A stretch of DNA of 29,366 nt from positions 1 through 29,366 of IMG/VR virus record IMGVR_UViG_3300044475_000055. One strand, written 5' to 3'. The DNA comes from a virus. Its lineage: Duplodnaviria; Caudoviricetes. The notes below the pieces were generated by a model that was given only the letters and a program-made list of their open reading frames with translations, was not told the DNA's origin and did not search any database. The position numbers and the translations under genes were made by a program. The stretch's first letter is position 1. Every line of letters starts with the position of its first letter. Positions 498 to 28,254 of the stretch are shown one piece after another.

Positions 498-537
498 GTT
501 TCCTCACCAACCATCTGGCCTCTGGCCTGGATGCGAA

Positions 538-575: not shown

Positions 576-595
576 CGTCTTGGAGTAGGCCGTGG

Positions 596-976
596 CTACC
601 TGCCGCCGACAACTCCGGCCCCTAGCGCCGTGGTGAGCCAGTAGCAAAAGCCGATGCAGGCGAGGCCATTGAAGACCAGGAGGCCAAGCAAGACGGTGCC
701 CGCCGCGGTGTTGTTTTCCTTGAGGACTTCGTCCAGCAAGACGCTGACCTTGAGGTTCGGCCAGAAGACCATCGATGCCTGCATCTGCATGCCGTAGATC
801 GCGAAGATGAGCCCGCCCGTCTGGAAGATCGTGAGGGCCATCGGGAGATTCACGAACTCGTCGGCCGGCAGCGGGAGCCGGATCGAGAAGGCGAAGAGGC
901 CGGCGAGGATCAGGAACCACGACATCGGGTCGAAGAGCGGGCGCAGGCGAGCGGCGGCTTTTGCAATCAATTTCAT
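596..976 (-). CDS. Membrane protein, DUF350-like (possible lysis/holin accessory)
   Basis: Three hydrophobic segments and the motif LLDEVLKENNTAAG. ATG at 976 overlaps the upstream stop (ATGA). Confidence 0.7.
   Translation of the reverse strand: MKLIAKAAARLRPLFDPMSWFLILAGLFAFSIRLPLPADEFVNLPMALTIFQTGGLIFAIYGMQMQASMVFWPNLKVSVLLDEVLKENNTAAGTVLLGLLVFNGLACIGFCYWLTTALGAGVVGGR
961..976. repeat. 16-bp palindromic motif, degenerate copy (TTGCAATCAATTTCAT)
   Basis: 2 mismatches to consensus; overlaps the ATGA junction of two membrane genes. Confidence 0.6.
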
Positions 977-1386
977 TTCTGTTCTCCTAGAACTTTCGAG
1001 AGTTGTGTATCCGTCCACTTGGACACTCGCTCCGTGAGGTTGTCTACGAAACGCGAGCCCGAGTATGCTAGTACAGCAATGAGCAGCATCTCAAGCATGT
1101 CGGGGATGCCGATGGATTCCATGAGGAAGAACGACATGCCCCCCGCGAACCACGCCATGACCATGTGCGACGCAACGTAGGTCAGGAGCTTCTTGGGGGT
1201 GGCGGACTTGAGGCGGTGGAGCAGGCTGGTGAGGCCGCCCATTGTGGAGAGAACCCAGACGATGATCCAGGCGGTGACGCTGATGCTGCTAAACGTCGCG
1301 TCCAACGTCACGGTTGTTGAGGCCAGTGCGACCGGGGGCCACATGACGAAGAGCAACGCCTTCAAAAGTCGGTAAGCCGAAGTCAT
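973..1386 (-). CDS. Putative holin (LydA-like family)
   Basis: 3-4 transmembrane segments with GGxxSLL and AxxGSxFVD patterns and a charged C-terminus. GGAGG RBS before ATG 1386. Confidence 0.65.
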   Translation of the reverse strand: MTSAYRLLKALLFVMWPPVALASTTVTLDATFSSISVTAWIIVWVLSTMGGLTSLLHRLKSATPKKLLTYVASHMVMAWFAGGMSFFLMESIGIPDMLEMLLIAVLAYSGSRFVDNLTERVSKWTDTQLSKVLGEQK

Positions 1387-1846
1387 GTTTCCTCCCTTCA
1401 TTTCTCGGCTGGACGTAGCGCCATACGGTGTCCACAACGGCAACCCACATGGACGCTAATGCGATTACGCCGTTGACTGCCGCGGGCCAGACCCAAGACT
1501 CGTACTTCAGCATGACCCCCACTATAGCCATGTTCACGATGGCTTGCATCATGTAAAAGTTCACTCGGCCATCCATCAACAGAGTGAAGAGGCCGCCCCG
1601 CTTCAAAAAGTCGTTAGCGACGACATCGAGAAGGGCACCGCAAGCGAACGCGATGAGCAGGTAGTGCAGCCCTACGCCCCACGGGCCGGCTGCATTCGCG
1701 ATGATCGCTCGCGCACTTGTCGGCTCGCATACCGCGGTAAGGGAGACGACGATGCTGAAGAGTGCGAGGGTAATTCGGTGCCCCACTTCGCGGGCACGAT
1801 TTGGGTTGCCACTGTTCTCGTAAACGTACAGGCCAAACATGGGCAC
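1289..1846 (-). CDS. Multi-pass membrane protein (holin/antiholin-associated, unknown)
   Basis: About 4 hydrophobic helices; first gene of the membrane cluster. Start is GTG 1846 or ATG 1840. Confidence 0.65.
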   Translation of the reverse strand: MPMFGLYVYENSGNPNRAREVGHRITLALFSIVVSLTAVCEPTSARAIIANAAGPWGVGLHYLLIAFACGALLDVVANDFLKRGGLFTLLMDGRVNFYMMQAIVNMAIVGVMLKYESWVWPAAVNGVIALASMWVAVVDTVWRYVQPRNEGRKHDFGLPTFEGVALRHVAPGRTGLNNRDVGRDV

Positions 1847-1991
1847 TTCCTTTGCCGCGCCTGCAATCTAGGCGCTCGCTGTGACTCTACTGATCAACCC
1901 CCTACCGGGCTGTCCAGTATTGTGTCACGCCCATGTGAGGCGGGGCCTCATTCGGACGTAATCCGGAGGCCCCGCGAGGGAGGGTGAGCAG

Positions 1992-2007
1992 TTGAAATTG
2001 ATTTCAA
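1992..2007. repeat. 16-bp palindromic motif TTGAAATTGATTTCAA
   Basis: Exact copy; supplies the TGA stop of 2004..2654. Confidence 0.95.
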
Positions 2008-2654
2008 CTTTCGGCGGGCGGTTCGTCGTCCGGCAGAGGCGCATCCGGCCAGTGGATGGCAAGGACGGTTTCCTCGTCAGTCGCCGCCGTCATGCGCTGC
2101 CATAGCGCATCGGTTATGTCGATCAGCGACTGCGTACGATTGCTGATCGCTACGCCGATACCGAAGATGTCCGGGAGCGTCAGCGGGCGCATGACGTTGT
2201 CGGAGCACCGCCACACCTTCGTGGGGTTCAGGTCCGTGCTCGTCTGGAGCATCAGGATAGCGCCAAGCATCTTCACTTGGCTATCCATGTCCGCGTTCAC
2301 CGCGTAGTCCTGGTACGGGATCGGCGCGTACATGAGACCGTCGCGGTGCGTCATGAGCTTGGCCCACTGGCGCGTCTTGAGGACTTCCACGGTTTCGTCC
2401 GTGGCGGAGTCGATGTAGCCGCCCGCGAAGTTCTCGTGGAGCAGCGCCCCCGCTTCGAGTTCATCGAGCAGTTCACCGGCCGCGTACGGGACCGGCGTCG
2501 ATGTGAGGGGCGGCTTGCCGGCGATGAACGCATCGCGGTCGGCAAAGCTCTGGACGTTGACGACCAGATCGGGGAATCGCCCCTCCACCGATACGACACG
2601 ATGGTAGGTGGCGGTCGCCCCGTTGGGCGTTGAAATTGATTTCAAAATCGGCAT
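2004..2654 (-). CDS. Tail-fibre/tip assembly-like protein with C-terminal DUF4376-like domain
   Basis: WRCSDNVMRPLTLPDIFGIG...VLAIHW pattern typical of DUF4376; lies downstream of the tail-tip genes. Confidence 0.7.
   Translation of the reverse strand: MPILKSISTPNGATATYHRVVSVEGRFPDLVVNVQSFADRDAFIAGKPPLTSTPVPYAAGELLDELEAGALLHENFAGGYIDSATDETVEVLKTRQWAKLMTHRDGLMYAPIPYQDYAVNADMDSQVKMLGAILMLQTSTDLNPTKVWRCSDNVMRPLTLPDIFGIGVAISNRTQSLIDITDALWQRMTAATDEETVLAIHWPDAPLPDDEPPAES
2630..2645. repeat. 16-bp palindromic motif TTGAAATTGATTTCAA
   Basis: Exact copy; encodes LKSIS just after the start codon. Confidence 0.95.
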
Positions 2655-2660
2655 GCGATC

Positions 2661-2861
2661 TCACTTTCGTTGGGGGATGTAGCGGTCCGGGTTGCCCTCG
2701 GTGGTGCGGCGGTAATCTTCGCCGGACACGGAACCGAACTTTCCGCCGATGCTGGACTTCTGGATGGACTGGAAGCGGCTTTCGTGGGCGGGGGTGCCCG
2801 TGGCGCAAGCCGAGAGCATGGCGACGATGAACAGGGCGGCGATGGTGCGGATGCGTTGCAT
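2661..2861 (-). CDS. Small lipoprotein (66 aa), possible superinfection-exclusion/receptor-blocking protein
   Basis: AGGAG RBS, then MQRIRTIAALFIVAMLSAC with a lipobox LSAC. Function is inferred from position only. Confidence 0.7.
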   Translation of the reverse strand: MQRIRTIAALFIVAMLSACATGTPAHESRFQSIQKSSIGGKFGSVSGEDYRRTTEGNPDRYIPQRK

Positions 2862-2945
2862 GGTGTTTCTCCTGGGCTGTGCTGGTGGGGCCGAAATTGG
2901 CCTGAACGTAGTTTGCGCTCCCGCGCCCATTTCGTGTAGCTCCAC

Positions 2946-3725
2946 CTAGTCGTACGCCGCCGTGTCCAGAACATACAGGGTCTGCGCGGGTAGGGACCAG
3001 ATTTCCGACAGGGCCGGTCCGTCAACATCGCGTGCGTTGGAGATGGTGGCGCGCTGTCGGCGTACCTGCCCTGATTCGAGCCCGTACAGGTACATGCGCT
3101 CTTGGGTTGCCTGCCCAGCGGAGCTAGATGGTCGGTGCCGTCCATGCGCAGGGCCGATGATCATTGGCGTAGTCACGCCGGATGCGAAAGAGACCAAGTC
3201 CCCGGTTAGGTACGTGCTCTGATCCGTGCGCAAGGGTAGCTCCAGAACCTCCTTGAGCATGAATGGCTTGAGGCCGAAATCCCAGGTTACCGCGCCCGCC
3301 GCGCTGTAGAGACGTAGGCCAAACGGGTCTCCTGACCCCGCCCATTGCGTGAACACGTAGACATCCGTCGTGAGGTGGGAGTCGAAACCAGAACTCGACA
3401 TGACCGACGTGATTGGCGCAGGAGTTGTAGCGTCGATGCTGTAGAGGTCGAAGTACCACGTCGCGGAACCGGACGACGCCCGGCGTACACGCTCAAGAGA
3501 CTGGAGCCTGCCAGCCACCAACTTGAAACCAGCGATGGGCAACAAGTCCGCACTTGCCAGCGTGATCTGGTACCGGCCCTTGTACCGTTCATTGCTGAGG
3601 TTGCTACCCACGGTGCCGTCCACGATGCCTACGTAGCTTGCTTTGCCGATGTAGTGCATGCCGAGGAGGTCGGAGTCCACAACCAGCTCGCCCGCGTTGT
3701 TTTCGATCTTTAGTCCGTATGCCAT
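2946..3725 (-). CDS. Tail-tip associated / putative receptor-binding accessory protein
   Basis: MAYGLKIENNAGELVVDS N-terminus and an internal FGLRLYSAAGAVTWD repeat, typical of genes following gpJ-like proteins. Confidence 0.7.
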   Translation of the reverse strand: MAYGLKIENNAGELVVDSDLLGMHYIGKASYVGIVDGTVGSNLSNERYKGRYQITLASADLLPIAGFKLVAGRLQSLERVRRASSGSATWYFDLYSIDATTPAPITSVMSSSGFDSHLTTDVYVFTQWAGSGDPFGLRLYSAAGAVTWDFGLKPFMLKEVLELPLRTDQSTYLTGDLVSFASGVTTPMIIGPAHGRHRPSSSAGQATQERMYLYGLESGQVRRQRATISNARDVDGPALSEIWSLPAQTLYVLDTAAYD

Positions 3726-3726
3726 G

Positions 3727-4008
3727 TCAGTACACGAAAACGGCTATTCCGCCGTTCCCGCCTGGATAGTTGGTGGTTCGCGTCAGCGTTACTACCGGGT
3801 AGCCCGAGGAGTAGCTGACGGACACGGTGATGAGCCGGTCGTAGCGAATGTACCGGATGGAGCGCCCCGGGTACTGACTCAGGGTGAGGACCGTAGGTGT
3901 CCCCACCTCGACGGTCAGGAGGCCGGCGCAGACCCCCCCGACCGCCACACGACTGTCGTAAACCAGATTGCCCGAGGCGCTTCGGGTCTGTAGTCCGTAG
4001 TCCGCCAT
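3727..4008 (-). CDS. Small tail-tip associated protein
   Basis: MADYGLQTRSASGNLVYDS N-terminus is paralogous to the next gene; translationally coupled to the J stop. Confidence 0.7.
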   Translation of the reverse strand: MADYGLQTRSASGNLVYDSRVAVGGVCAGLLTVEVGTPTVLTLSQYPGRSIRYIRYDRLITVSVSYSSGYPVVTLTRTTNYPGGNGGIAVFVY

Positions 4009-7000
4009 TACAGCAACCCCAGTCGAACGCGACGAACATTGCTGTCGTCGTACACGTCAATACGGTTGTTTGTGACCTCCACCCGGCCGGTGGATGTCAC
4101 ACCCCCGTTGATCGTGTTCGACAGAGCTACAACGCTGAGATTGCCGGCCTGCAAGACGCCGATGCGCGAGTAGTCAATCGCCGCAGCGGCAATGTACGTG
4201 CTGACGTTGACACTAGTGATCTGGTTGAGGTACGCCATCGCCCCTGGGTTGAGATGCCCAAGGTTGAAACTGCCCCCGCCAGCGTTATTCAGAGAGACCG
4301 TGCCGCCCGAGGCACTGAGCGAAACGCTGCTGTTGAGAACACTGGACGGCGCATTGCTGGCGTCAGTCTTGATGGCCCCGATACCCACAGGGGTGACGCT
4401 ACCGGACGCGGACGGACCTCCCGACGTGGACAGCGAGCCGTCAGCGTTTACCGTCAGGTTGATCTGTGCGTTGCTGACCGTAGTACCGTTGCCCGCGCCG
4501 ATGCCGCCCAGTTGACCGGAACTGTTGATCCCGATATTGCTGTTCGCCACCGCCGTACCGTTGCCGGTTCCGATGCCACTGATGTTGCCGCCGGACACCG
4601 AGATGTTGTTGTTCATGATGGCGCTGTCGGCGGGCTGCGACGAAATGTTGCCACCCCACGTTGCGCCGTAGGTCGCATTTGCGTCGCCCGTGTAGCCAAT
4701 GTCGATCAGAGAGGTAGCGCCGCGATTGGCTCCGCTCACGACGAGCGCCCCGGCTTCCGTAATTTGGAAACTGGTGTCGCACCATGCGTTCGTGTCGCTG
4801 CCTACCGAACCCGCGTAGCACTCCGCGCCGTTGCCCTCTCCGCAGCCGCCGATGCCGATCAGGATGTAGGCGCCGCGATACTGGAAAGCCGCTGAACCCC
4901 AAACAGTCCGCGAAGCGCCGTTGCGGTACATAGCTGCCGGCAGGTTGCCCAGCATGCGGTTTCCTGACGGTTCGTCGTACGTGAAGACCACGCAAATGTG
5001 GTTGTTGTCGATCCCATTCAGCGCCGCTGCCATTGCGTTGCATTCTCCCGTGGGGCCGAGCGCGCCGGATAGCGGGTTGAACGTGCCCAGGTCCGTGACG
5101 GCCTTGGTCGTGCGGTGAATCTTCACGACGCGGTACATGGCGCCGCCCGTGGCAAGGTCGGTCCCTGTGTCAGCGTCTCGCAGAACGGAGCCGATGATGT
5201 GCGACGTAGAGCCGAGGCCGTAGGCGCCGACGCGATACGTGCGCGGCTTGCCGCCGACAGCCGACCATTGGTTGGAGGACATCGGACCAAACTGGATGTT
5301 CGTGGCCTTGCCGCCTACCGTGTCAAATGATGAGTCCAAGTACAGCGGTGCGCTGCTAACCCACGGAACGGTGAACAGAACTGCGCCGTTGCGCATGAAG
5401 CGGACGTTCGTACCGTCGTAGGTCACAGCGAGCTGATCCCCCGCCGAGAAGGTGCCGATAGCGGCGCCCCCGTTCAGGACGGCGCCGTTGCTGAAGGCTA
5501 GGAGCGACGTACCACTGTTGTAGAGCCACCAATCGACAGTGTCGTAGCTGCTGTTGGCAACTGGGTCCGAGTTCAGCCCGATCCCGAAGCTGTATGACGG
5601 GTTGGGGTGAATCCAGGAAACGTACGCGCCGCCCGAGTAGCTGTCTTGGGAGTAAACCGCGGCGTTCCACCCGCCCCCGCCAGACACCTTCGTGACCGTG
5701 CTGCCCTCGATAGACATATTCGCGTGGTTGATCAGCTTTACCCCGGCCGCAGCGTTCAAGTCGCCTGCGTAACCGATGCCGCGGATCGTTACCTGACCGC
5801 CACCCGCGTTATTGAGCGTGCCATCTGCGTTGACCGACACCGCGGTATTCAAGACCGAGTTGGCCTCGAAGTATTCACGTAGAGACGGCTCCGTGCCGTC
5901 AACCACGTTGACCATAGGACGGCCGAAGAGCTGGGTTGCGTTCGCCCCGGCGTAGAACTGGTACGCACGGTGGCTGGTAGCACCGGTAGAGCTTTGGTTC
6001 CAGTTGTTCCCGGTGGCAACGAACAGACCCGTCTTGCAATCGATGATGCCAGCGCCCGAATTGCTGTTGTTCACGCTGCCGTACGGGAACACGTACCCGA
6101 CCATCAGGTACCAACGGTCGGTGCTCATCGAGTTGCGACCGTACGCGATGAAGTACGGGTTGCCGTCTACTGTCGTCGAGTTCAGACCGCACACGCTGTT
6201 CGTGCCCCAGTAGACGGAGCCACCAAGTCCCGTATCTCGCACACGAACAGGAACTACGAACCGGTACGTCTTGCTCGGGTCGAGACCGGACAGGCTCGCA
6301 TTCCAGCCCCCGCCTGAGTTTCCGTCGCCTGTGGCTTCTCGGCAGTACCAAACGATGTCGCTGCCACCGCGAGGACCGGTGCCGCCCACGTCATTCGTGG
6401 CGTAAATGATGTTCTCCTCTCCGTTCTGACTCCAGGGGATGGTCGCCCCGCGCTTCCACCATGACACGTCGATCATGTTGTTCTTGATCGCGTCGTCGGC
6501 CGGGCGGTCGGCAACGCCTGCCCAGTTTGCGGTAGTACCGAGGTTGCCGATGGCGTCCAGTGTTTTGGCGTCCGACCACATAGACGCCGCGATGATGCCT
6601 GGGGCGGTCCCTGGTGCGCCAGTATCCGGTGCGCCGCTTTCCACTGTGCCAATAATGAACGTGCTGGCAGTCGGGGTGAACGCTGTCCAAGCACTGTTGT
6701 TGTCGTACTCCCAGCCGGCGGAGGATTTCCGCGCAGCAACGTAGGGGTAGCCTGCTGACCCTCCCGCAATCGTGAATAGCGATAGGGAGGTATCCCACAC
6801 GATCCAGCCGGAGAACGGACCCTGACTACCGTAGAGGAGGCCGTTGGGCACCGAGGTAATCAGACCATTGACCAGGATCGTTCCCGGAGCGTCAACGTCA
6901 GTCCCGGACTGGCTGCGGCCGTGAATCCAGCATTCGTTCCAGTTGAGCGTGCCCGCGAAGTCACCGACGTTGCGCTTGATCGCCAACTGCGGGGTCTGCC

Positions 7001-10000
7001 ACGCTGCTGCCGCGTTGATCCGGGCGTAGTCCAGGTTCTGCCCCGAGCTGAAGATGATGTTCCCGGACGCATCCTTGATGGTGAGCAGTCGGGTGTCGAT
7101 CTGCGCCGCCTGGATGTAGTCGATGAATGCCGACTTGAGGTACAGACCGGCCGGGATAGAAACCCCGTTCACAACGGTGGTCGTCGTGTAGTACACAAAG
7201 GGCGCGTACTGGGTATCCGACACGCCGGAGGGCGGCAGGAAGGTGATCGTGTTCGCGCGGAACGCAATGTCAAACCGCGGGCCTTGTCCGGAGCTGTTCG
7301 TGCCGCTGATGCCGATACCCCCTACTGCGGCAACGCTGCCCCCGCTGACCAGTGCAACGCGAAGTGCCCATTGGGCGCCGAGGTAGCCGTCTGCATCTAC
7401 GCGGGCCTGCGATTCAGTCTGTACCAGCGAGTAGGTGTCCGCCCCCGCGTTTGAGCCAACGGAAATGAAATCAATTTCAAAACCGTCCGACGCGTTATCC
7501 ACGCCTACCTTGCCGAAGTCGATACGAAGGTAGTTGATCGCTGTGGATGTCAGCCAATCGGTGCCGCCAGCGGTGAGAGCGGTCATGTCCCACTCGACGT
7601 TGCCCCAGCCGGTAGTGCCGTCCCACACAGGCTCCGTCGCGATCTTGTTGTAGCTCTCGCTCTCGGAGTGGGACTCGTTGCCGTAGTACAGCTTGCCGTG
7701 CCACGCCGGAGTACCGATGCGCTTGACCTTCGCGCGAATCTTGTCCGCTTTGCTTCCCGGGAACCGTTCGGCTGTAGCGAGGTCGCGCAGGATCACCGCC
7801 TTCCCGCCCGCGTTCGCCATGAGAGTTGCGCTAGAAGCGTTGGCGGTGAACGAACTGAACGATGCCGTGTAGCCCACCCACCCGTTCAGCGAGCCGTTGA
7901 AGTTGAACCCGAGGAGGCCGGTGTACGTGCCTCCCGTGCTGTTCGACGTGACCGTCTGCAACCGCTGGTTCACCGAGCCCTCGACAGATGCGTCTGCGGA
8001 GATGAGGTTGACTTCTTCCAGGAAGTCATCGGCGAGGTTGTTGAACGTCACGCCCTGGGTGGCGATGTCGATCAGTTGCTGGATGTTGCTCGCCGCGGCC
8101 GGGATGTTCTGCACGGCCACATTGGAGAGGTTGCCGGCCTCGTCCTGCGCCCGCACGAAAATCTTCGTGTCGGCGACGAGGTCAGGGATGACGAACACGC
8201 TGCGCTGGTTGCCGCCGCCCGACCCCTTGTCCACCGCCGTATCCCACGTCGCGGTGTTCGGGCCGGAGCGAACCAAGATTGCCTTCAGCGGCTGCGAGGT
8301 CGTCGGGTCCGGGAAGCGGATGTACGTGCCCTCCAGCGTGCGTTCGACGTTCAGCGTGGGCGTGTCCGGGTTCTGGATCACGAGATCGTAGGTCGCCGTG
8401 TGCTTGCTGAAGTTGCCGCTGGTGTCGATGTAGCGCGCCATGATCCGCGTGGTGCCGGACGCACGCCACGTCATCGGCTGCGGTGAGACATCCTTGGTGA
8501 ACGCCTTGGGCAGCGCGAAGAAGTCGGTGTCAGTTGCGATGCCCAGGCGAATATCGAGCCCCGCGTAATCCGGCGTGTTGGTTGGCGGATTCCAGCGAAT
8601 TTCCCATCCGCCATTCGTGACCACGGCGGTGAGGCCGGTGACATCCTCCAGGCTGGAGTTCTTGGACTCGACGAGAACCGTACCCTCCAGGCATTTCTGC
8701 GAACGCATGCCGGTGGGTGAGACGGCGTAGAGGCGCACGGTGTACGTCTTGCCATCCTTGACCGGCACTAGGTCGGCCTGCGCCCCGTACGAGGTGACGG
8801 TGTTCCACGACTGGTCTTCGTCGGTTTTGAAATCAATTTCAAAACGGACGGAACCAATCATCTTTGTCCACGTCGCTTCGATGCGGTAGATCAGGCTACC
8901 GTCCGAGGTGATCTGCGGGTCCGGGGAGTACAGGTTGAGCGCGGCCGGCAGCATCGGCTCGCCAGGAGTCGTGTAGCTGTACTTGGTCTCGATGTACCCG
9001 CCCGTCTGCTCCACCTGTTCGTACTTGTCCGCAGCAATCTCGATGGCCGAGATAGATACCTCGTCCGGGCGGCCTTCGACCTCTTCGATAGCGAGGACGC
9101 GGAAGGGCTTGGACATGCCCATATCGGCCGTGTCCTCGATCACGAAGGTCGTGCGGTCCGGGACATCGCTGACCGGGAAGTTACTCGACGGCACGTTGAG
9201 GGTGTAGTTCTCCCCCAGGATCAGCGGCGTGATCTGGATTTCCACAATGCCGCTATACGTCTGGACTTTCATCGTCCGGGCATCGAGCGTGGCGAAGTAG
9301 ATCGGGTCTCGCAGTTGGATGGTGCTGGCGGTCGCCGACTTGACGCGACCAGTAGTGCCCCAGTCGGCTAGCGGGTCGGCGACCGTGATGGTGTCGAGGA
9401 GGCCGCACATCAAGCCTACCCGGGTCGTCGTGAAGTTGACCGTCGCGATTTCCTTGGTAGCAGTGACGAAGCGGTAGTTAGCCCGCCGCACTGCCTCCCA
9501 GGAGTCGGTGCAACCCACGGCGATGAAGTCGAACGGGACGCGACCGAACTTCGTGATTTCCGCGGTGTTGTCGATGGTGGCAGGGCGCCAGTCTTGCTCC
9601 CAGCCGAGGTCCGGGTTCACGAATGCGACCTGGATATCGTTGTACCGAGTGGTGGGGTCGGAGAAGGTGTAGCCGAAGCCGGCCGGTGTCACGTTCTCCG
9701 GGGTAAAGACGTGCTTTGACGCGCGAGGACGATCCGAGCGCAGGATGATGGACCCGTTGCCGTCGTCGTCGAGAACCGCGTTAAACGACCCTGCGACATA
9801 GCGCAGCATCTCCATGCCGTCGCGAGCTTCTGTGATCCAGTCGTTGTAGGTGAAGCGCGGTTGCGTGCCGCCTTCGCCTCGGCCGTCCGGGACCATCTCG
9901 TCGCACCACTTGGCCTCGGCGTAGAACTCGTACCGGTTGGCAGTGGCGTTCTTGAAGTAGCGCGCGAGACCGTACCGCTCGTTCGTGATCAGCTCGTACA

Positions 10001-10916: not shown

Positions 10917-10927
10917 CTTTGTACCTT

Positions 10928-10943
10928 TTGAAATTGATTTCAA
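10928..10943. repeat. 16-bp palindromic motif TTGAAATTGATTTCAA
   Basis: Exact copy; fills the I-J intergenic gap. Confidence 0.95.
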
Positions 10944-10944
10944 C

Positions 10945-19585: not shown

Positions 19586-19595
19586 TCAGTTCTCC

Positions 19596-19624
19596 AAAAA
19601 GAAAAAGGGGCCAATAGGCCCCTT
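19596..19624 (-). terminator. Intrinsic terminator after the major tail gene
   Basis: AAGGGGCC-4nt-GGCCCCTT hairpin followed by a T-rich tract on the minus strand. Confidence 0.85.
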
Positions 19625-19644
19625 GGGTTGCTGGCAGAACCAGT

Positions 19645-20415: not shown

Positions 20416-20445
20416 GTTGGAATCTCCAGAGTGAACGTTTGGGGT

Positions 20446-20994: not shown

Positions 20995-20996
20995 GT

Positions 20997-21488
20997 TCAG
21001 TCTTCCATTTTTGCTGCGACTCGACGGAGGAGTCCGTCCACTGCTTTGACATCCGCCGCGCCAACGCCAAGGATACGGCGTTGCGGCAGGCCGCGCTTCT
21101 TGTTGCCGTAGCTATGGGCACGCGCCTTCAGTTGAAGGTGCTCACCGCCGACGAAGCCGATGCGAACGCCCGCGCCTGTGTTGACTGCGAATATGCCGCC
21201 CAGCGCGCCTTTGATGGCTCGGATGGAGTCTCGCAGTTCGTTCGTCTGGGAGAGGATTTTCCGGCCTGGGATGCCGCCCGCGCGACGGCGACGAGCCAGC
21301 GTGGTAGCCGCGAGCGGGGTCCACATCTTGCCGTCTGGGTCTTGCTGCTTCTCGAAGCGATCCTTTGCGCGACGCACGAGGAGATCGCTGATTTGGTCGG
21401 TGAGTACGGGCAAAGAAAAAGCCGCACGAATCGTGGCGATCCGGCGGCCTAGTTTCTGCACCCCGCCGACGTAGCGGGTGTCTTCCAT
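20997..21488 (-). CDS. Phage virion morphogenesis protein (Mu gpG / P2 gpS family)
   Basis: RFEKQQDPDGKMWTPL..T, IL..T..LR.SI and LPQRRILG motifs. Confidence 0.88.
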   Translation of the reverse strand: MEDTRYVGGVQKLGRRIATIRAAFSLPVLTDQISDLLVRRAKDRFEKQQDPDGKMWTPLAATTLARRRRAGGIPGRKILSQTNELRDSIRAIKGALGGIFAVNTGAGVRIGFVGGEHLQLKARAHSYGNKKRGLPQRRILGVGAADVKAVDGLLRRVAAKMED

Positions 21489-22111
21489 CAGGAGACCTTT
21501 TCAGATTTGATGGCCCAGAGAACCCGGGCGCGAGGACGAAGGAACCGGCCGTAGATGCGGTGCCGTAGATCGTCCTGAACTGCTTGGTGCAGAGCGACGA
21601 GGCCGCCGCGCCACTTCTCCGGGAGCGAAGGAGTCTGCTGGACGATGCGACGTGCGACGACGAGAGCATCTACGACAGCGCCTTGAATCCAATCCGGGAC
21701 ATCGAGTGCCAGTCGGTAGTCCGGGTTGGTGTCGCTGTCCTCGTCCACCTTGAAGCCAGCGGCGTACTCGGCGGTGATGTATGCGCCGTCCCAGTTGTAG
21801 GACGTGTACTGCACTGTGCCGTACTCGTTGTTGACGAGTGCGTCCACTGGGTCGGTGACATTCATCGTCACATCGCCATCGATAAAGCCGTAGCTGAGGC
21901 GAAACGGGTAGGCCGGTTCGTACATCCCGCGAGGCGCCTTGAAGGTGTCGCGATACGTGGCGTATTCGAGGCCGGGCATGTCGAGGAGCGCTGCAACCTT
22001 GGGGGTCAGCAAACGAATCTGTTCCTTGAGCACATCCTGCCCCGCCGTCTGCGTAGGAGCGCACTTGATATCTATCGCCAAGAGCGCCTTTGCGGGGTCG
22101 ATCAGAAGCAT
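21488..22111 (-). CDS. Putative head-tail adaptor
   Basis: ITAEYAAGF...VPDWIQGAV resembles the Y.AG...VP..I..A adaptor motif; synteny. Confidence 0.65.
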   Translation of the reverse strand: MLLIDPAKALLAIDIKCAPTQTAGQDVLKEQIRLLTPKVAALLDMPGLEYATYRDTFKAPRGMYEPAYPFRLSYGFIDGDVTMNVTDPVDALVNNEYGTVQYTSYNWDGAYITAEYAAGFKVDEDSDTNPDYRLALDVPDWIQGAVVDALVVARRIVQQTPSLPEKWRGGLVALHQAVQDDLRHRIYGRFLRPRARVLWAIKSEKVS

Positions 22112-22127
22112 GGCCTACCCTTCCGCT

Positions 22128-22790
22128 TTAGCTGCGCTGCGACTTGCGGACGGCGGGACCGGTGCGCTTCACCGCGGGCGTGGTCTTGGTGACCGTCGTG
22201 TCCGTCTTGGTGTCGGCGTCAGTGTCCGCGTCGGGCTTCTTGGCACGGGCCTTGACGGCTTCGGTGTCGGCGCCGGTGAACAGATTGCCGAAGTAGTCCA
22301 CCGCATCTTCGATGAAGACGGCGATTTCCTCGTTCGTCATCACCTCGGGGAGTTCGGCCAGCTTGGCGTCAAGTTCTTCACGGGTAGGCGGGCGTTGGTC
22401 GTCGTCCGTGCCGCCCGCTTCTTCCACGGAGCCGGTGCGCTCGATCTTGGTCACGTCTTCCGGCGTCACCTTGCCTTGGGCGGGTTCGTCGTCGGTGTAG
22501 ATCGGGTTGCGCGCCGCGGCTTCGATGGAGTCGGTGTCACGCGGGTTCTGCTCGACGACGCGCTGGACGTTCAGTGCCGTGAAGTCGAGATCGACCTTGG
22601 CGGGTTCCGGGTCCAGTTCGGTGAAGAACGGGATGTCGAGGCCGTCCGAGTCGCTGAAGCGCGCCAGCGTCAGGAGGTATTCGGCAACCGCCGCCGAGAC
22701 GCGCAGCGTGTTGTGCTTGCGGGTGATGACGTTGTGGGTGTGGGTCGGCGAGTTGTAGGTCTCGATACCCGTCTGCTTCAGAGTCTTCAT
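22128..22790 (-). CDS. Hypothetical acidic head-region protein
   Basis: GAGG RBS before ATG 22790; strongly GC3-biased codons; acidic low-complexity middle. Confidence 0.75.
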   Translation of the reverse strand: MKTLKQTGIETYNSPTHTHNVITRKHNTLRVSAAVAEYLLTLARFSDSDGLDIPFFTELDPEPAKVDLDFTALNVQRVVEQNPRDTDSIEAAARNPIYTDDEPAQGKVTPEDVTKIERTGSVEEAGGTDDDQRPPTREELDAKLAELPEVMTNEEIAVFIEDAVDYFGNLFTGADTEAVKARAKKPDADTDADTKTDTTVTKTTPAVKRTGPAVRKSQRS

Positions 22791-22797
22791 GTGAACC

Positions 22798-23004
22798 TCA
22801 TTTGAAATTGATTTCAACCGGGGCGTTTCCCCGGCTGCGTACTCTACTACGACCACTGATAGCTATGGCTTTGTCCACAGCCGCCTCTAGGTCGGGGTCG
22901 AGGTCTTTCAGCCAATCGCGGAAAGCAATACCGCCAATCTCGGTGTTCCAGTTTTGGCACAGGAACCGCCATCTAAGTTCGCCGAGGTTTGCTTCGTTTT
23001 CCAC
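22798..23004 (-). CDS. Small hypothetical protein (possible moron)
   Basis: 68-aa ORF filling the gap after the capsid terminator; atypical codon usage; GTG start with weak RBS. Confidence 0.45.
   Translation of the reverse strand: MENEANLGELRWRFLCQNWNTEIGGIAFRDWLKDLDPDLEAAVDKAIAISGRSRVRSRGNAPVEINFK
22802..22817. repeat. 16-bp palindromic motif TTGAAATTGATTTCAA
   Basis: Exact copy; encodes VEINFK at the end of the small ORF, just upstream of the next RBS. Confidence 0.95.
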
Positions 23005-23040
23005 AGACCGAAGTCTACCGGCTCGCCGGAGTACAGACGC

Positions 23041-23069
23041 AAAAAAGCCCCGGGGTCTAGCCGGGGCTT
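23041..23069 (-). terminator. Intrinsic terminator after the major capsid gene
   Basis: AAGCCCCGG...CCGGGGCTT stem plus a T-run on the minus strand. Confidence 0.85.
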
Positions 23070-23109
23070 GGAATGCCGCCAGAGGCGGCGAGGAGACAAC
23101 TGGCGCCGA

Positions 23110-24057
23110 TCAGATGTTGATCATCTTCACGGTGGCGTCCACGTCATCCATTTGCAGGCCGACGCGGGCCGTCAGCACGATGACGTATTCGCGGGAACGG
23201 ATGTCCTTGTCCGTTTCGACGGTGATGTCGCGGCGGATGCCGAAGATCAGGTTCTGCGGGAACGTGACCAGACCGGTCTTGCCGATGTTGTCGTAAGCCA
23301 GCGCGGCGACGCCTTCCAGTGTCAGGCCGTGGGCCGTCAGCGGGATGTTGTTTTGCAGCGCCGAGTCGCCGTAGCCGGTCTGGCGTTGCGACACCTTTTG
23401 GCGGTACTTGATGGTGTTGGCCATCGAGATATAGCCGCGCATCTGGGGCAGGTACTTCAGGTACGCCTGCGGCAGCGCCAGTTGGGCGTTGGTGAACAGG
23501 TCCGGACTGACGCCGGCATTGGCGTTGTCAGTGATGTGGGCACTGGCGCGCTTCATCCAGCCGTTGGCGAGAGCCAGATACGGGTCGGACGAGGCGGTGT
23601 CGGCCCACAGAGCCCACTCTTCCAGGTCGAGGGCGGCACGTTGCGCGATGAGGCGCATGATGTGCTCTTCCATCGAACGGCCTTCGATGTTGTCCTCCAG
23701 GGCTTCGTAGGGGATGCGGATTTCCGCGATCACTTCCTTCGAGGTCAGGCTGATCTGCGAGGTCGTCGGCTTGGAGCGATCCGCCACACGCAGGTAACGG
23801 TCATTGCCGCCAGCGTCCAGGTCGCCGCCGTTGGTCGGCGCGGCCTTCAGGATGCGGGTCTTGAAGCCCAGGCGGTTGATCTTGACTTCCGGCGAGTTCA
23901 TGCGAACGACGCGGACCTGGGGCAGCATGGTCGGCTGATCCAGGATGTAGTCGATGAACTGGTTCGCCTGTTCGGGCGTCAGCACGCCGCCGTTGGCGGT
24001 CAGGTCGGCCAGCGCGAGGTCTGCGCGGTTGACGAGTTCTTGGGACTTGGTGGTCAT
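23110..24057 (-). CDS. Major capsid protein (HK97 fold; XkdG/P2-capsid-like family)
   Basis: GGVLTPEQANQFIDY and IPYEALEDNIEG motifs; AAGGA RBS; followed by a terminator. Confidence 0.92.
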   Translation of the reverse strand: MTTKSQELVNRADLALADLTANGGVLTPEQANQFIDYILDQPTMLPQVRVVRMNSPEVKINRLGFKTRILKAAPTNGGDLDAGGNDRYLRVADRSKPTTSQISLTSKEVIAEIRIPYEALEDNIEGRSMEEHIMRLIAQRAALDLEEWALWADTASSDPYLALANGWMKRASAHITDNANAGVSPDLFTNAQLALPQAYLKYLPQMRGYISMANTIKYRQKVSQRQTGYGDSALQNNIPLTAHGLTLEGVAALAYDNIGKTGLVTFPQNLIFGIRRDITVETDKDIRSREYVIVLTARVGLQMDDVDATVKMINI

Positions 24058-24099
24058 CTCAGTTCCTTATGGAGTGGCAGGGTGTGGTTGGTGTTGCGA

Positions 24100-25563
24100 T
24101 CAGGACTTGCGGCCGAGGGTGCCGCGGAGGCCACCGAAGGCGGAGGCGCCACGCCACACGTCCTTCTGGGTGCCCTTGCCGTCTTCGGCAGCGGGGGTCT
24201 CGGTGGCCGCGCCGGTCGTCTCGGTCTTGCCGTCGCCGGTTTCGCTGCGAACCACAGTCGTGCCCTCGATCTTTTCGAGACGTTCAACCACGGGGGCCAG
24301 CGCACCCTTGACGGCATCGGCGATGTCGGCACGAGTGATCGTGGCGGCAGCACCTTCGGCCTGGGCGGCGGCACCTTCTCCTTCGGTCTTGCCCGCGCCG
24401 GCAGCAGCCGGTTCGGCGGGTTCCTGGCGCTGCGCTTGGGCGGCGTTGCCGGCCTTGATGGCGTCCAGGAGTCGGGTTTCCATCGAGCCCACGGCGGCTT
24501 CGAGGTCGGCGCGGGTCACGGTGTCGGTGGGTTGGGGCTGGGCAGCTTGCTTGCCCGCACCGCCTTGAGCGTTCGTGTTCATCTCGGGGTTCTCCAGTTG
24601 GGGGTTGGCGGAACGGGCCACCGCGACGAGGACCGTACGCGGGAGGCTGTCCAGGATACCGGTGGCGAAAGTACCGAATTGCTCCAGTGCGTTCGACATC
24701 AGCATTTTGCGCTCCGCCAGAGGCAGGGCGGAATATAGCAAAATCGTGCTCAACACGGAGCGAAGCGAGTAGATAGCTTCGTCCATTGCTTCGCTGAACA
24801 TGGTGTCGGCCAGCTTGGCGTTGAAGTCGAGTTGACCCCAGCCCCAATTGCCGTAGCACGTTTCGTTGATCACGGCGACATAGCCATCCGGGACGGCGCC
24901 GACATCGGAGCGGATGACCGTAGCCGTCAGGCCGGGCTCGATCTCGACGCTGCGGGACTCTTCGTCCGCGGGAACCTCGGCGCGCTGGACCGAGTAGCTG
25001 ACAGCAACACCGTCATCGCCCTTCTCGAATTCCACCTTGCCTTCGATGCCGTTGGCAGTGAGCCAGTCCACGACTTGCTGTTCGGTGAACTGTTCGGCGC
25101 GGAAGACGTAGCCGGTGACGGCCAGTGCGCTCTTGGGGTTGGTTGCCGCCGCGTCGTCGGCGCGTTCGACCGTTGCCACCACGCCGTCATCGCTGAGGCG
25201 GACGGGGATGGTCTTGGTGTCGTTTGAAATTGATTTCAAATCACCGCGGAGGGCGACGATGGTGTCGTCTTTCCGAGTCACGCTGAAGCCGGTGAGACCG
25301 AGACCCTTCATGCGCTCGTTCACGGTGGCGTCGTCGAACGTACCGGGGAAAGTGACGCTCAGGATGGCGCCGGGGTCCGAGCGACGGGTGCGGCGCACGA
25401 CAGGGGTTTTCATTGGGGCTGCTCCTTGGTTGCCTTGGGTGCCTTGACCGTCCGCCGACCGGACGACCTTGAAGGCCACTTTATTCGCCGGACGGCCGAC
25501 GAGAGACAGGAAGGCCGGCTTGATGACTTCCATCAGGTTACCTTCTTGTTCCACTGTTGCCAT
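24100..25563 (-). CDS. Scaffold-like head protein with an N-terminal protease-associated motif
   Basis: Lies between protease and capsid genes; N-terminal FLSLVGRPAN..F motif; Ala/Glu-rich coiled C-terminus; GAGGA RBS. Confidence 0.75.
   Translation of the reverse strand: MATVEQEGNLMEVIKPAFLSLVGRPANKVAFKVVRSADGQGTQGNQGAAPMKTPVVRRTRRSDPGAILSVTFPGTFDDATVNERMKGLGLTGFSVTRKDDTIVALRGDLKSISNDTKTIPVRLSDDGVVATVERADDAAATNPKSALAVTGYVFRAEQFTEQQVVDWLTANGIEGKVEFEKGDDGVAVSYSVQRAEVPADEESRSVEIEPGLTATVIRSDVGAVPDGYVAVINETCYGNWGWGQLDFNAKLADTMFSEAMDEAIYSLRSVLSTILLYSALPLAERKMLMSNALEQFGTFATGILDSLPRTVLVAVARSANPQLENPEMNTNAQGGAGKQAAQPQPTDTVTRADLEAAVGSMETRLLDAIKAGNAAQAQRQEPAEPAAAGAGKTEGEGAAAQAEGAAATITRADIADAVKGALAPVVERLEKIEGTTVVRSETGDGKTETTGAATETPAAEDGKGTQKDVWRGASAFGGLRGTLGRKS
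25224..25239. repeat. 16-bp palindromic motif TTGAAATTGATTTCAA
   Basis: Exact copy; encodes LKSIS in the scaffold-like gene. Confidence 0.95.
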
Positions 25564-25570
25564 TTCGTCC

Positions 25571-26188
25571 TCACTCTTCCAAAGTTTCGACAGTATCCGC
25601 GGTTTCAATCACCTGGAAGCGGTGATTGTGCCCGTCAGACACTTCCGTAATCGTGTGGGTCGCGATTTTATGGGAGTGCCCGTTCTCGGAACTCGTTGCG
25701 CCGGCCAGCGGACGATTTAGCGAATCCAGGGTGATGACGTAGGTGTGAGTGTGGCCGTCGTCCGGGTGGGGCTCGGTACGACCCACGATGGTGCGGTTCT
25801 CTTCCGTGGTGTAGAGGACCGGGATCATGTTGACCAGAGCCTCGTAGCTGTAGCCGTTGAGTTCGCCCGCGAGGATGGCTGACCAGATTTCATCGTTGGG
25901 TACTTTCATTCCGACGACCCAGCTACCTTCGATGAAATCCGGGTCTCCCGACCGGGCGATGAAACTCTCGACGACGTACACATCCCCGGTCACGTCGGTG
26001 CGGTCGTGATCCACATCGATCCCGTAGCCCTGGCGCGCGAACTCGTATGCGAAGTCTTTGATGGCGTCAGGGGTGTAAATGTCCCCGAACGTGTTGACGA
26101 CGTTGGGGACCAGGACTTCAGCGAAGACGACCCGCTCCCATTCCTTCCCGTCGTCCCGGTGCACTAGGCGCATGCTAGGTGCGTCCAT
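25571..26188 (-). CDS. XkdF-like prohead serine protease with His-rich C-terminal tail
   Basis: RVVFAEVLVP..D, IDVDH, VVESFIA, GSWVVGMKV and W..I..GELNGYSYE motifs; GGAG RBS before ATG 26188. Confidence 0.88.
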   Translation of the reverse strand: MDAPSMRLVHRDDGKEWERVVFAEVLVPNVVNTFGDIYTPDAIKDFAYEFARQGYGIDVDHDRTDVTGDVYVVESFIARSGDPDFIEGSWVVGMKVPNDEIWSAILAGELNGYSYEALVNMIPVLYTTEENRTIVGRTEPHPDDGHTHTYVITLDSLNRPLAGATSSENGHSHKIATHTITEVSDGHNHRFQVIETADTVETLEE

Positions 26189-26190
26189 GT

Positions 26191-27768
26191 TTACTCCTGG
26201 CCGTGCTTGGGAGGCTGCACGGTCTCGCCCGTGTTCTCCGTCTGCTTCTGTTGTTCGGTCTTCTGGGCCTGCGCATCGTGGGTCTTCTGCGCCCCCGACG
26301 TGAGAACCAACGGTTTGTCCATCCACGGCTCGTAGCCCTTCTCGCCCTTCTTCGGGTACTGCGGCAGTTCCGTTTGCAACAGCGTGTTGGCGACTTGCTG
26401 CGCAGAGGCCGGAGTGATAGCGCCCATGATGTTCAGAGCTGTGAGCGTCTTGATGACCATCTCAGGCGACGTGATCGACGGGGTGCGCGAGGTCAGCTTG
26501 GCGGTGGTCAGTTGGAGACCGTTGATGCCGTTGACCAAGAGCCGGTTGAGCATGCCGTCCAGCAGAGAACGCTCCGGCGAGAACACCTGTGATTCGGCCA
26601 CGAAGACCGAGGTGGTGGCCGTAGCGAAGTTCACGTCCTGCGAAAGACCGACGACGACCGGAGGTAGACGGAAGCTGGAGCGCACCTTCGCCATGTTGCC
26701 TTCGTCGTACGCCTTGAACAGACCGTCCGACTGACGCTGATCCGACAGCTTCTCCACCTTCAGGTCGATGTTGCCGGACTTGCCGTCCAGTGAGTCGCCT
26801 TCGCCGATGGCTTCGAGCAGAAGAATCTTATGTTGCCGTTCCTTGCCGATACCTTCCGAGTTGAGCTGGTTGCTCAGTTCTTGGTAGGACTGCGCAGACA
26901 GTCGGCCGTTACCGATCATGAGCAGCATCGGCGGGACGGTGTTGTCCTGGAAGTAGCGCATGTTCACTTCTTCCGCCTCGCGCGATCCGATGATCGACGG
27001 GATTTGGTTGATCCAACGCGGGACGCCGTAAGCCTCGACGCTGGGCAGCTTGAAGTGAACGATCTCGGTGGCGAGGTCGCCGTCTTTGTAGCCCGCCTCG
27101 CCCTCAAACATGCCGGTACTGCCGTTCATCTTGCGGGGGTCGCCGAACTCCTTGAACCAGCGTGTCTCGCCAGCGGCGATCTGGATGAAACGACGGAAGC
27201 GCTTGAACTCGGTCACGCTAGTGACTCGACGACCACGGGTGATGGTGTACGTGACTTCTACCGCCTGGGGGTGCTTCACAGCGAGCCGGGTGTAGACCGC
27301 CGATGCGTGACGGAGCAAAGAGATACGGCCGAGTCGGTCACGGATGACTTCCATGAAACCGAAGCCGGCCGTCTCACGGTCGCGGATAACCTCGGACAAG
27401 ATTTCGACCAGCGACTGATCCACGTTCGGATTGTCGATGAAAGATTGCAGCTCGAAGCTCTCGCCTTCGTTCGCCTCCCGGTCGCGATAGAGCTTGTCTA
27501 CCTCCCAGCCGGTGAGGACGATGTTCGTCACGTAGGCGTCGATGCACTGAGCAAGCATGTTGCTTTGCTCGCGCAGTTCGTAGAGGCGGGCGACGTTGTA
27601 CGGGGTCGGCAGGACAAGGGCGCCGTTCGTGGAAAGGACGTAGCCGGTGAACTCGTCGATTGCGCGAACTTGCTTGCTGGTGTTGCCGTCTTCGCGCTTG
27701 ATGCCAAAGACCGTCGCCCGCGCTGCGCCAGGACGACGACCGCGAACTACCACGGTTTTCTTTTTCAT
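26191..27768 (-). CDS. Portal protein (PBSX/XkdE-like)
   Basis: EIVHFK...YGVPRW, YFQDNTVP and FRLPPVVVG...NFATA motifs; ATGA-coupled to the upstream gene. Confidence 0.92.
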   Translation of the reverse strand: MKKKTVVVRGRRPGAARATVFGIKREDGNTSKQVRAIDEFTGYVLSTNGALVLPTPYNVARLYELREQSNMLAQCIDAYVTNIVLTGWEVDKLYRDREANEGESFELQSFIDNPNVDQSLVEILSEVIRDRETAGFGFMEVIRDRLGRISLLRHASAVYTRLAVKHPQAVEVTYTITRGRRVTSVTEFKRFRRFIQIAAGETRWFKEFGDPRKMNGSTGMFEGEAGYKDGDLATEIVHFKLPSVEAYGVPRWINQIPSIIGSREAEEVNMRYFQDNTVPPMLLMIGNGRLSAQSYQELSNQLNSEGIGKERQHKILLLEAIGEGDSLDGKSGNIDLKVEKLSDQRQSDGLFKAYDEGNMAKVRSSFRLPPVVVGLSQDVNFATATTSVFVAESQVFSPERSLLDGMLNRLLVNGINGLQLTTAKLTSRTPSITSPEMVIKTLTALNIMGAITPASAQQVANTLLQTELPQYPKKGEKGYEPWMDKPLVLTSGAQKTHDAQAQKTEQQKQTENTGETVQPPKHGQE

Positions 27769-28142
27769 TGTGCTGGTACCTTCCGGTTGTAGATGTAGCC
27801 CCGCACACGGAGCCACTCGTTCAGGTCAATCGTTCCGCCGTGGGCTGCGTCCGCTTCGATGGTGAGGCTGCAAATCCAGCTTGTGTGGTTCTTGGCGTGA
27901 ACCTTGATGACGCCTCGCCTATTGCGGGACAGCGCACGTACCTGACGACGGATTGCGCCCGCGTCGGTGTCATCCGCCATGTTCACCGCGTTAGGGGTAT
28001 CCACGCCGAACAAACGAATGCGCTGTTTTTTCCACAACTGCTCAATCTTCAGGTCAACCATGGCGACCAAATCGTCGCCAGAAAACACGTCCAAGATTAG
28101 GCAGCTATACGTCTCAAGGTCGTCTTTACGCTCGTCCGACAT
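27765..28142 (-). CDS. Thermonuclease (SNase)-like protein, probably catalytically degenerate
   Basis: VFSGDD...VDL...RIRLFGVDTP...DLNEWLRVRGY matches the SNase pattern; GGAG RBS. Confidence 0.75.
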   Translation of the reverse strand: MSDERKDDLETYSCLILDVFSGDDLVAMVDLKIEQLWKKQRIRLFGVDTPNAVNMADDTDAGAIRRQVRALSRNRRGVIKVHAKNHTSWICSLTIEADAAHGGTIDLNEWLRVRGYIYNRKVPAQ

Positions 28143-28197
28143 CTCGTTCTCCACAGTTCGCAGAATGATACCCGAGGAGGGCACAAATCTCGGGCGC

Positions 28198-28224
28198 AAA
28201 AAAGGCCGACATCGCTGCCGGCCT
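28198..28224 (-). terminator. Intrinsic terminator after the recombinase gene
   Basis: AGGCCG...CGGCCT stem plus T6 on the minus strand. Confidence 0.7.
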
Positions 28225-28238
28225 GTGTTGAGGTCATT

Positions 28239-28254
28239 TTGAAATTGATTTCAA
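28239..28254. repeat. 16-bp palindromic motif TTGAAATTGATTTCAA
   Basis: Exact copy; supplies the TGA stop of the recombinase. Confidence 0.95.

Follow-up and report, generated by a model that had tools for sequence, protein, structure and literature searches.

The window, the whole 29,366-nucleotide stretch of DNA analyzed here, is the virion-gene part of a siphophage related to the Pseudomonas Samunavirus phages. Its virion and lysis genes lie on the minus strand (123..29213) and include portal, XkdF protease, capsid, tail tube, tape measure, lambda-like tail tip, holin, GIY-YIG, and recombinase genes. Scattered through this region is the palindromic 16-mer TTGAAAT(TG/CA)ATTTCAA, present as nine exact copies, one copy with a single mismatch, and two degenerate copies. 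The window has a GC content of 60.9%, below the ∼63% estimated in a first-pass annotation that had picked out the motif from the sequence alone.

A degenerate site with two mismatches (961..976) lies over the start codon of the minus-strand ORF 596-976 (MKLIAK). The first exact site (1992..2007) overlaps the TGA stop codon of the DUF4376 tail-assembly gene 2004-2654, and the second (2630..2645) occupies codons 4-9 of the same gene (LKSIS), whose start is backed by a weak PHROG match beginning at residue 3. The gene for the central tail fiber J holds the one-mismatch site (7465..7480, FEIDFI) and an exact site (8827..8842, FEIDFK). The following exact site (10928..10943) is most likely intergenic, in a 28-bp gap that separates the stop codon of tail-assembly gene 10945-11613, which it closely follows, from the probable start of J at 10916. 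Two sites lie within the tape measure gene, one degenerate (14982..14997, LQSIAD), in a form common among relatives, and one exact (17142..17157, LKSISK), at the same alignment column as a site in the related genome G004. Further exact sites are found within gene 20446-20994 (20747..20762, IEIDFK), where nine other aligned members lack it, in the last codons of the small ORF 22798-23004 (22802..22817, VEINFK), and within a putative scaffold gene (25224..25239, LKSISN), while the last (28239..28254) overlaps the TGA that ends the gene for the tyrosine recombinase (28251-29213). Six of the nine exact copies are thus intragenic and two cover stop codons. The coordinates, the peptides read through the motif, and both stop overlaps are as the first-pass annotation gave them.

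Ten copies with at most one mismatch occur in the window, compared to none in 100 dinucleotide shuffles. Shuffling synonymous codons with the proteins held fixed, a control proposed along with the original observation, gave a mean of 0.015 exact copies and a maximum of 1 (n = 2000), compared to the six that lie wholly within curated genes. The motif also draws on codons that the window otherwise avoids, as had been claimed: TTG makes up 11.5% of Leu codons, AAA 19% of Lys, TCA 6% of Ser, and ATT 16% of Ile. A spacing of about 2.5 kb is correct as a mean (2480 bp) but not as a period, with gaps ranging from 638 to 4835 bp. Similarly, the TG/CA center described as invariant is so in 12 of 12 window copies, but relatives use other centers, including CA/TG, TA, AG, AT, and GA, with CG in the SM1 and JP1 variants.

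Counting the motif in relatives, another of the proposed checks, found it in 17 of 17. There are 23-55 sites per genome in 14 complete or near-complete relatives of a proteobacterial clade and 25-49 in three further relatives, each with its own variant; RcTiptonus has 53, TM16 27, and G011, classed as a provirus, 49. The Streptomyces outgroup Samisti12 has none. The usual form is TG(A/C)AA-N4-TT(G/T)CA, of which each phage lineage keeps its own tight version, and the TG(A/C)AA core half-site is nearly constant across hosts. Sequences flanking the sites are not conserved, and cultured phages carry the motif as well. Among 150 bacterial genomes of one class, with the true hosts outside this sample, there were 86 matches (0-6 per genome, ∼0.2/Mb).

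Selection acts on the DNA and not on the protein, as the first-pass annotation had argued. The codon shuffles and the varied peptide frames support this, and at one orthologous position the reading frame differs between genomes: the column of site 25224 is also a site in G003 and G004 in the same frame, and in G001, G002, and SM1 in another. Intragenic sites turn over; of 101 positions compared, 81 are private and 20 shared, with three read in different frames. Sites are also more evenly spaced than chance, with a CV of 0.40-0.66 against ∼0.96 (P ≤ 0.007 in 14 of 14 genomes). With the boundary sites fixed, intragenic copies still made the distribution more even (P ≤ 0.012 in all 15 cases, the window among them), and a distance-to-boundary test gave P < 0.05 in 10 of 15; the genomes tested are related, so these tests, like those of co-occurrence below, are not independent. 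Even spacing was not significant in the fragments G008 (P = 0.06) and G009 (P = 0.07). Density is alike across blocks in six genomes (one site per 2.6 kb in virion, 2.8 kb in replication, and 2.3 kb in other genes), and the longest of 530 inter-site gaps is 8.0 kb. No fixed period or helical phasing between sites was detected (R 0.03, expected 0.04). A palindrome recurs every 2-3.5 kb, and intragenic copies override codon choice where gaps would otherwise be long. It is unusual for selection on spacing to be so strong that codons are rewritten.

The best candidate for a reader of these sites is the uncharacterized family phrog_17202 (SM1 gp050), a putative DNA-binding protein. The first-pass annotation had suggested looking for a ParB/KorB, HTH, or RHH gene with the motif in its promoter, and a site lies within 200 bp upstream of the phrog_17202 gene in 11 of 13 genomes, compared to 319 of 1916 genes overall. 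Among distinct loci (60 of 75 kept, after dropping duplicate proteins and those with less than 200 bp upstream), 40 have an upstream site against 4.3 expected. SIO-2 and 1.215.B have no scored site there, and the candidate is not alone in having one, since the AAA gene is preceded by a site in 10 of 14 genomes. Of the 17 relatives, 16 carry the phrog_17202 gene, as do 59 of 50,697 phage records in GenBank, every one of them named after a proteobacterial host, and 64 of 73 loci retrieved through the gene carry a strict site. It sits within the replication/recombination block, after ruvC. The gene is absent from the window and from the 8.7-kb extension G006, and would lie in the missing ∼60 kb of this phage. 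The family comprises 4467 clusters at 50% identity (E ≤ 0.001), with members unannotated or misannotated.

Residue-level co-variation of the candidate with the motif is modest. Across 44 loci, 39 with RecA (near-duplicates and loci with fewer than four sites dropped), motif distance follows the GWxK helix most closely (partial rho 0.31 given RecA, P = 0.002); no such relation holds for the HTH segment of the candidate (P = 0.10), and one does hold for the unrelated neighbor c14 (P = 0.006). Other readers were considered and rejected: an H1-like, K/A/P-rich, winged-helix-like protein (SM1 gp093) occurs in only 7 of 17 genomes, an HTH protein encoded before the large terminase (c26, probably the small terminase) in 9 of 17, and ParB_N proteins are missing in 4 of 17. 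A role for the phrog_17202 protein as a virion-borne DNA-entry ratchet was also set aside, as the DLP3 homologue gp62 is not among the 21 ghost-particle proteins given in the accessible part of that report, with the reservation that ghosts lose DNA-bound proteins (PMC7326821).

The structure model of the candidate (pLDDT 91.7) is closest, at a borderline level, to a ParB/KorB DNA-binding domain followed by a ribbon-helix-helix-like domain. Matches include ParB (PDB 6S6H; Z 7.7, rmsd 3.4, 101 aligned), Spo0J (PDB 1VZ0; Z 6.7, rmsd 2.7, 89 aligned), KorB (PDB 8QA8 and 1R71; Z 5.8 and 5.6), StbA (Z 5.1), and SopB (Z 4.8). All of these fall below Z 8, a range in which, by the tool's own guidance, a match may reflect nothing beyond a common arrangement, and the second-best match is Raf1, at 7.5. 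ParB-family or StbA DNA-binding domains account for 6 of the 13 top rows, and residues 153-205 match the N-terminal domains of NikR and MazE9 (Z 4.1-4.2). By sequence, the candidate has no significant link in Pfam or the PDB (Noc only at E = 2); a weak DUF3102 match appears in 2 of 12 members (E 0.05-0.08), and embedding similarity to DUF3102 and Plasmid_parti_N-like domains scores 0.86-0.87, under the lead threshold of the atlas. An N-terminal ParB CTPase domain was not detected, with a ParB_N match in 0 of 12 members and the arginine patch in 0 of 14, and three members have almost nothing before the core. Of the candidates found, the best is a dimeric-type binder resembling ParB/KorB.

Our leading reading, a tentative one of just under even probability, is that these evenly spread palindromes are sites at which the phage's own phrog_17202 protein coats and regulates the genome. 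Predicted to join a ParB/KorB-type DNA-binding domain to a ribbon-helix-helix-like dimerization domain, the protein would coat the DNA every 2-3.5 kb. Where a site adjoins a promoter, as in the minority that includes those of its own gene and of the AAA-ATPase/replication operon, it would repress transcription and set its own level; by a hand-made scoring, only 85 of 597 sites have a predicted promoter nearby. At the promoter-less majority it would organize the DNA through bridging or block read-through. Lacking a CTPase domain, it would not share the sliding of KorB, and this would account for the need for many close, even sites. The protein is likely a KorB-like but clamp-less genome-wide organizer and repressor. 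A bolder version, possible though doubtful, is that these siphophages, a large clade with genomes of 80-110 kb, form a sequence-addressed nucleoid, independent of lysogeny, from a clamp-less ParB-type protein on palindromes selected for spacing, with gaps below ∼8 kb. Coating or bridging during infection might then compact the genome, separate its copies, or shield it from host defenses.

The same protein and sites could instead serve lysogeny maintenance alone, the protein acting as a master repressor with genome-wide roadblocks, for which the stoperators of cluster A mycobacteriophages and the inverted repeats of phiC31 offer analogues. We consider this unlikely. Lysogeny does occur in the clade: DLP5 is a temperate phagemid (PMC5834331), DLP3 forms lysogens (PMC7326821), the provirus G011 ends with an integrase-like ORF, and the window encodes a tyrosine recombinase. 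However, RcTiptonus, the relative with 53 sites, gave no laboratory or bioinformatic sign of lysogeny (PMC8601537), and the candidate gene lies in a replication/recombination block. A pattern search of limited reach through 185,579 species genomes recovered few copies of it, three close ones, all on 3-4 kb MAG contigs, and one weak match. Several members of the clade are phage-therapy candidates called lytic, and a genome-wide repressor, if true, would bear on that label.

It is quite unlikely that another protein reads the sites, either the MerR/Xis-like HTH protein c32 of the same block, found in 15 of 17 genomes, or a proteobacterial host factor acting in DNA entry, protection, or as the target of a decoy. 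Such a reader would fit the nearly constant core half-site, and JP1 and L320 share one motif yet have quite different predicted recognition helices in the phrog_17202 protein. However, TM16 has its 27 sites with no c32 match, and c32 does not track the motif (P = 0.12). The tight variant proper to each lineage also argues against an outside reader, and the bacterial counts, at most six matches in a genome, weaken the host-regulator decoy raised in the first-pass annotation.

It is very unlikely that the sites serve as a dispersed centromere by which episomal phage DNA is segregated or positioned without ParA, possibly with neighboring stand-alone ParB_N proteins acting in trans. StbA has such a ParA-independent role for plasmid R388. 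The fold matches to ParB, SopB, and StbA and the phagemid state of DLP5 (PMC5834331) favor it, as do ParB_N genes directly 3′ of the candidate in SM1, G001, G002, G004, and G005; these genes are absent, however, in SIO-2, 1.215.B, and G013. A single motif pattern for the ParA/IncC deviant Walker A found nothing in six-frame ORFs of 18 genomes, and no ParA Pfam match occurred among 122 G001/G002 proteins scanned. Together with the missing CTPase domain, this weakens the classical parS centromere that had been offered as an analogue. A centromere should not require even whole-genome coverage, and the fixed promoter geometry points to regulation: 7-8 bp separate site and -35 box in 23 site-promoter pairs, often so at the candidate's own gene, and further cases have gaps of 16-17 and 24 bp, steps of about one helical turn.

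This position before the -35 box also fits activation, in which the protein would touch RNA polymerase from upstream at sigma-70 promoters and remote sites would be reservoirs or loop anchors. Many members do have a long acidic and Ala/Lys/Pro-rich N-terminal region. Activation is highly improbable, as it leaves the intragenic gap filling unexplained, and in SM1, G001, and G002 the site of the AAA gene seems, judged by eye, to be located downstream of the -10 box. Chance, protein-level selection, a mobile repeat, and an adapter or assembly artifact are effectively eliminated by the shuffles, the differing frames, the non-conserved flanks, and the presence of the motif in cultured phages.

In the literature searched, with most subscription papers outside its scope, we found no description of these repeats, and the stem “palindrom” does not occur in two reports on members of the clade (PMC7326821; PMC8601537). 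The closest known arrangement is that of the IncP-1 plasmid RK2, in which KorB reads 12 palindromic OB operators in ∼60 kb and also represses promoters (PMC13768133). Both systems scatter palindromes over a replicon, and the candidate model gives borderline matches to KorB. Unlike KorB, the candidate would form no sliding clamp and has a predicted ribbon-helix-helix-like C-terminus, and no IncC/ParA motif was found in the 18 genomes scanned; the phage sites are about twice as dense, evenly spaced, and turn over within genes, and their carriers are phages, one of them virulent. LacI-family operators (cre, galO) have a 14-bp TG...CA span, as here, with a conserved central CG step. In contrast, the center here is free to vary between lineages, and a LacI-type reader was rejected, with the LacI HTH (PF00356) in 0 of 5 phage genomes and controls positive.

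Among phages, cluster O mycobacteriophages carry more than 30 17-bp dyad repeats, about a third intragenic, mostly off promoters and in both orientations, with no evident lysogeny and, in the part of the paper available, no binder proposed (PMC4351075). These too are genome-wide palindromes, but of a 7-3-7 form, another sequence, and another host phylum, and an examination of 29.8 of the 69.8 kb of Corndog found no phrog_17202 homologue. Dispersed phage palindromes were known before without a reader, and the present ones come with a candidate, with sites that vary naturally, and with phages in culture whose hosts are tractable (RcTiptonus, JP1, DLP5, SM1, and SIO-2), making the proposal directly testable. 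The stoperators of cluster A mycobacteriophages, as described in the same paper, are also many repressor sites along the genome, within and between genes (PMC4351075). Stoperators are asymmetric and oriented with transcription, whereas the sites here are palindromic and, as the first-pass annotation had noted, show no fixed orientation, with eight one way and four the other in the window and mostly near-even numbers in the relatives.

The pattern of palindromic 16-bp sites, TTGAAAT(TG/CA)ATTTCAA, in the window is real. All 12 positions reported in the first-pass annotation were recovered, and the exceptional abundance that it claimed was borne out, with 10 matches at ≤1 mismatch in the window compared to none in 100 dinucleotide shuffles. 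Six exact copies lie wholly within curated genes, compared to a maximum of one in 2000 synonymous shuffles that kept every protein sequence; two exact copies overlap stop codons, as had been noted, and one is probably intergenic. The proposed recurrence about every 2.5 kb stands as an average (mean gap 2480 bp) but not as a fixed period, and the gap CV is 0.50 compared to 0.89 (P = 0.014).

The motif is clade-wide. Counting in related phages gave 14–33 exact matches to its core, usually TG(A/C)AA-N4-TT(G/T)CA, in HJ05, SIO-2, DLP5, and JP1, 27 in RcTiptonus, and 17–32 in five IMG/VR genomes, with 0–1 matches to a reversed control pattern in the phage genomes searched. Two Rhizobium phages missed by this first pattern have the same arms and different centres. 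Per-genome matrices found 23–55 sites in 14/14 complete or near-complete genomes (0–0.3 in shuffles), the least secure count being the 23 sites of 1.215.B, grown from 4 seeds, and 0 sites in the Streptomyces phage Samisti12. Three additional genomes hold 25–49 sites each, two of them with changed arms (TGCAGG-NN-CCTGCA and TGCAGA-NN-TCTGCA). Among the relatives, G004 has the window's 16-mer as its consensus, with 9 exact copies; G011 (L325–L330), a provirus of 101 kb, has an altered motif and a terminal integrase-like ORF, and G012 (L331–L336) is a 100.5-kb record with terminal repeats. A scan of 150 genomes from a single bacterial class gave 86 occurrences of the pattern (maximum 6 per genome).

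Selection on the sites acts on the DNA rather than the protein, as first proposed: the scaffold-gene site of the window, G003, and G004 (read LKSISN, LQSVAK) aligns at one column with that of G001, G002, and SM1, whose reading frame there is different (GAINCT, SAIACT). Across genes with orthologues, 101 intragenic site positions were compared: 81 occur in a single genome and 20 in more than one, with 3 of the shared ones read in different frames. Because the flanks are not conserved, mobile repeats and adapters are ruled out. The even spacing is also selected. Gap CV is 0.40–0.66 compared to about 0.96 in 14/14 genomes (P ≤ 0.007), and when intragenic sites are moved with intergenic and gene-edge sites fixed, evenness persists at P ≤ 0.012 in 15/15, the genomes being related and the trials thus not fully independent. 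Intragenic sites lie further than chance from boundary sites in 10/15, and evenness is not significant in two short fragments. The 530 gaps have a median of 2.2 kb and a maximum of 8.0 kb and follow no fixed period, and density is similar across virion, replication, and other blocks.

The sites are probably read by the phrog_17202 protein (SM1 gp050). A LacI HTH was found in 0/5 phage genomes, and clustering of all genes left this one uncharacterised core family, encoded after ruvC. It is present in 16/17 genomes; the exception, G003, also misses the neighbouring genes, and its record starts within the terminase gene. The family matches 59/50,697 phage records in GenBank, and every one of these is named after a proteobacterial host. 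Loci fetched through the family contain a strict site in 64/73, with variant sites in several of the others. A site lies ≤200 bp upstream of the gene in 11/13 genomes (112 bp in G004), the highest of 29 core genes and followed by an AAA-ATPase gene (10/14), compared to 17% for all genes; in IMG/VR and genome loci this is 40/60 compared to 4.3 expected. By hand-made scoring, sites near predicted sigma-70 promoters most often lie 7–8 bp ahead of the −35 box (23 pairs), and only 85/597 sites are near such a promoter. In GenBank records the candidate carries the label single-stranded DNA binding protein or RNase E/G.

The predicted fold and co-variation also bear on this candidate. The 205-residue core model (pLDDT 91.7, low-confidence linker at ~141–160), compared with 48,161 chains, best matches the DNA-binding domain of ParB in complex with parS (6S6H; Z 7.7, rmsd 3.4, 101 aligned), then Raf1 (Z 7.5), Spo0J (6.7), KorB (5.8 and 5.6), StbA (5.1), and SopB (4.8), and its C-terminal part resembles the N-terminal domains of NikR and MazE9 (Z 4.1–4.2). 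The tool itself rates such values as borderline, and they carry weight because the ParB-type family recurs. Motif distance tracks the GWxK helix of the protein (partial rho 0.31, P = 0.002; 11 tests) more closely than it does a MerR-like rival (0.11, P = 0.12). For the HTH segment the tracking is not significant; in ParB-family proteins, a helix that is not part of the HTH reads bases. Recognition-helix conservation in the fetched loci is partly built in by the search pattern. Counting against the candidate, its unrelated neighbour c14 tracks motif distance significantly (P = 0.006), JP1 and locus L320 share a motif and differ in the predicted recognition helix, and the gene is absent from the window itself.

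We tentatively suggest that the phrog_17202 protein may be a KorB-like organiser and repressor of the phage genome; such a protein, which would need a site every few kilobases because it could not slide, is the reading that fits all observations. KorB itself, a CTP clamp that slides, has 12 OB sites in ~60 kb (PMC13768133), whereas no ParB CTPase domain was found in the phrog_17202 members scanned, and the reader is proposed to be unable to slide. Lysogeny as the reader's only job fits poorly: DLP5 is a phagemid (PMC5834331), DLP3 lysogenises (PMC7326821), and G011 is a provirus, yet RcTiptonus, apparently virulent (PMC8601537), holds 53 sites. Even coverage would not be required of a centromere, and the phage genomes scanned yielded no ParA Walker A motif.

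This kind of phenomenon is already known, since KorB with its OB sites exists, as do the >30 17-bp palindromes of cluster O mycobacteriophages, of unknown function (PMC4351075). The motif family, spacing rule, and candidate reader appear new, with no earlier description found in searches of open-access main texts.

The contig covers 29 kb of a phage whose type has complete genomes of 80–110 kb. Its genes encode portal, XkdF protease, capsid, tail tube, tape measure, lambda-like tail tip, holin, GIY-YIG nuclease, and tyrosine recombinase, with virion, lysis, and recombinase genes on the minus strand throughout. Among cultured phages, Pseudomonas Samunavirus is closest (capsid 58%), followed by phages infecting Aeromonas, Vibrio, Stenotrophomonas, Agrobacterium, Rhizobium, and Rhodobacter; some Samunavirus GenBank records label the capsid gene methyltransferase or HNH nuclease. 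G006 is the same phage and extends the window by 8.7 kb, with 3 further good sites. The lambda-like tail-tip module (4008–13314, minus strand) replaces the tail genes of SM1, G001, G002, and G004 and holds 3 sites, which suggests that sites are gained after module exchange. The tyrosine recombinase (28251–29213, minus strand), with a site spanning its stop codon, has a GC3 of 0.55 compared to ~0.75, was not found in any relative searched, and may be a recently gained integrase. A GIY-YIG homing endonuclease (123–497, minus strand) adjoins the lysis genes. Among the relatives, the AAA ATPase (17/17) forms an operon with the small genes DUF1257 and DUF2997 (in 12), usually headed by a site (SM1 23721–27956, L126; G001 89506–93940). 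A protein with a Lys/Ala/Pro-rich tail (SM1 73419–73985, L127:26419–26985; 7/17 genomes) has a winged-helix-like domain, judged by eye, in a linker-histone-like layout.
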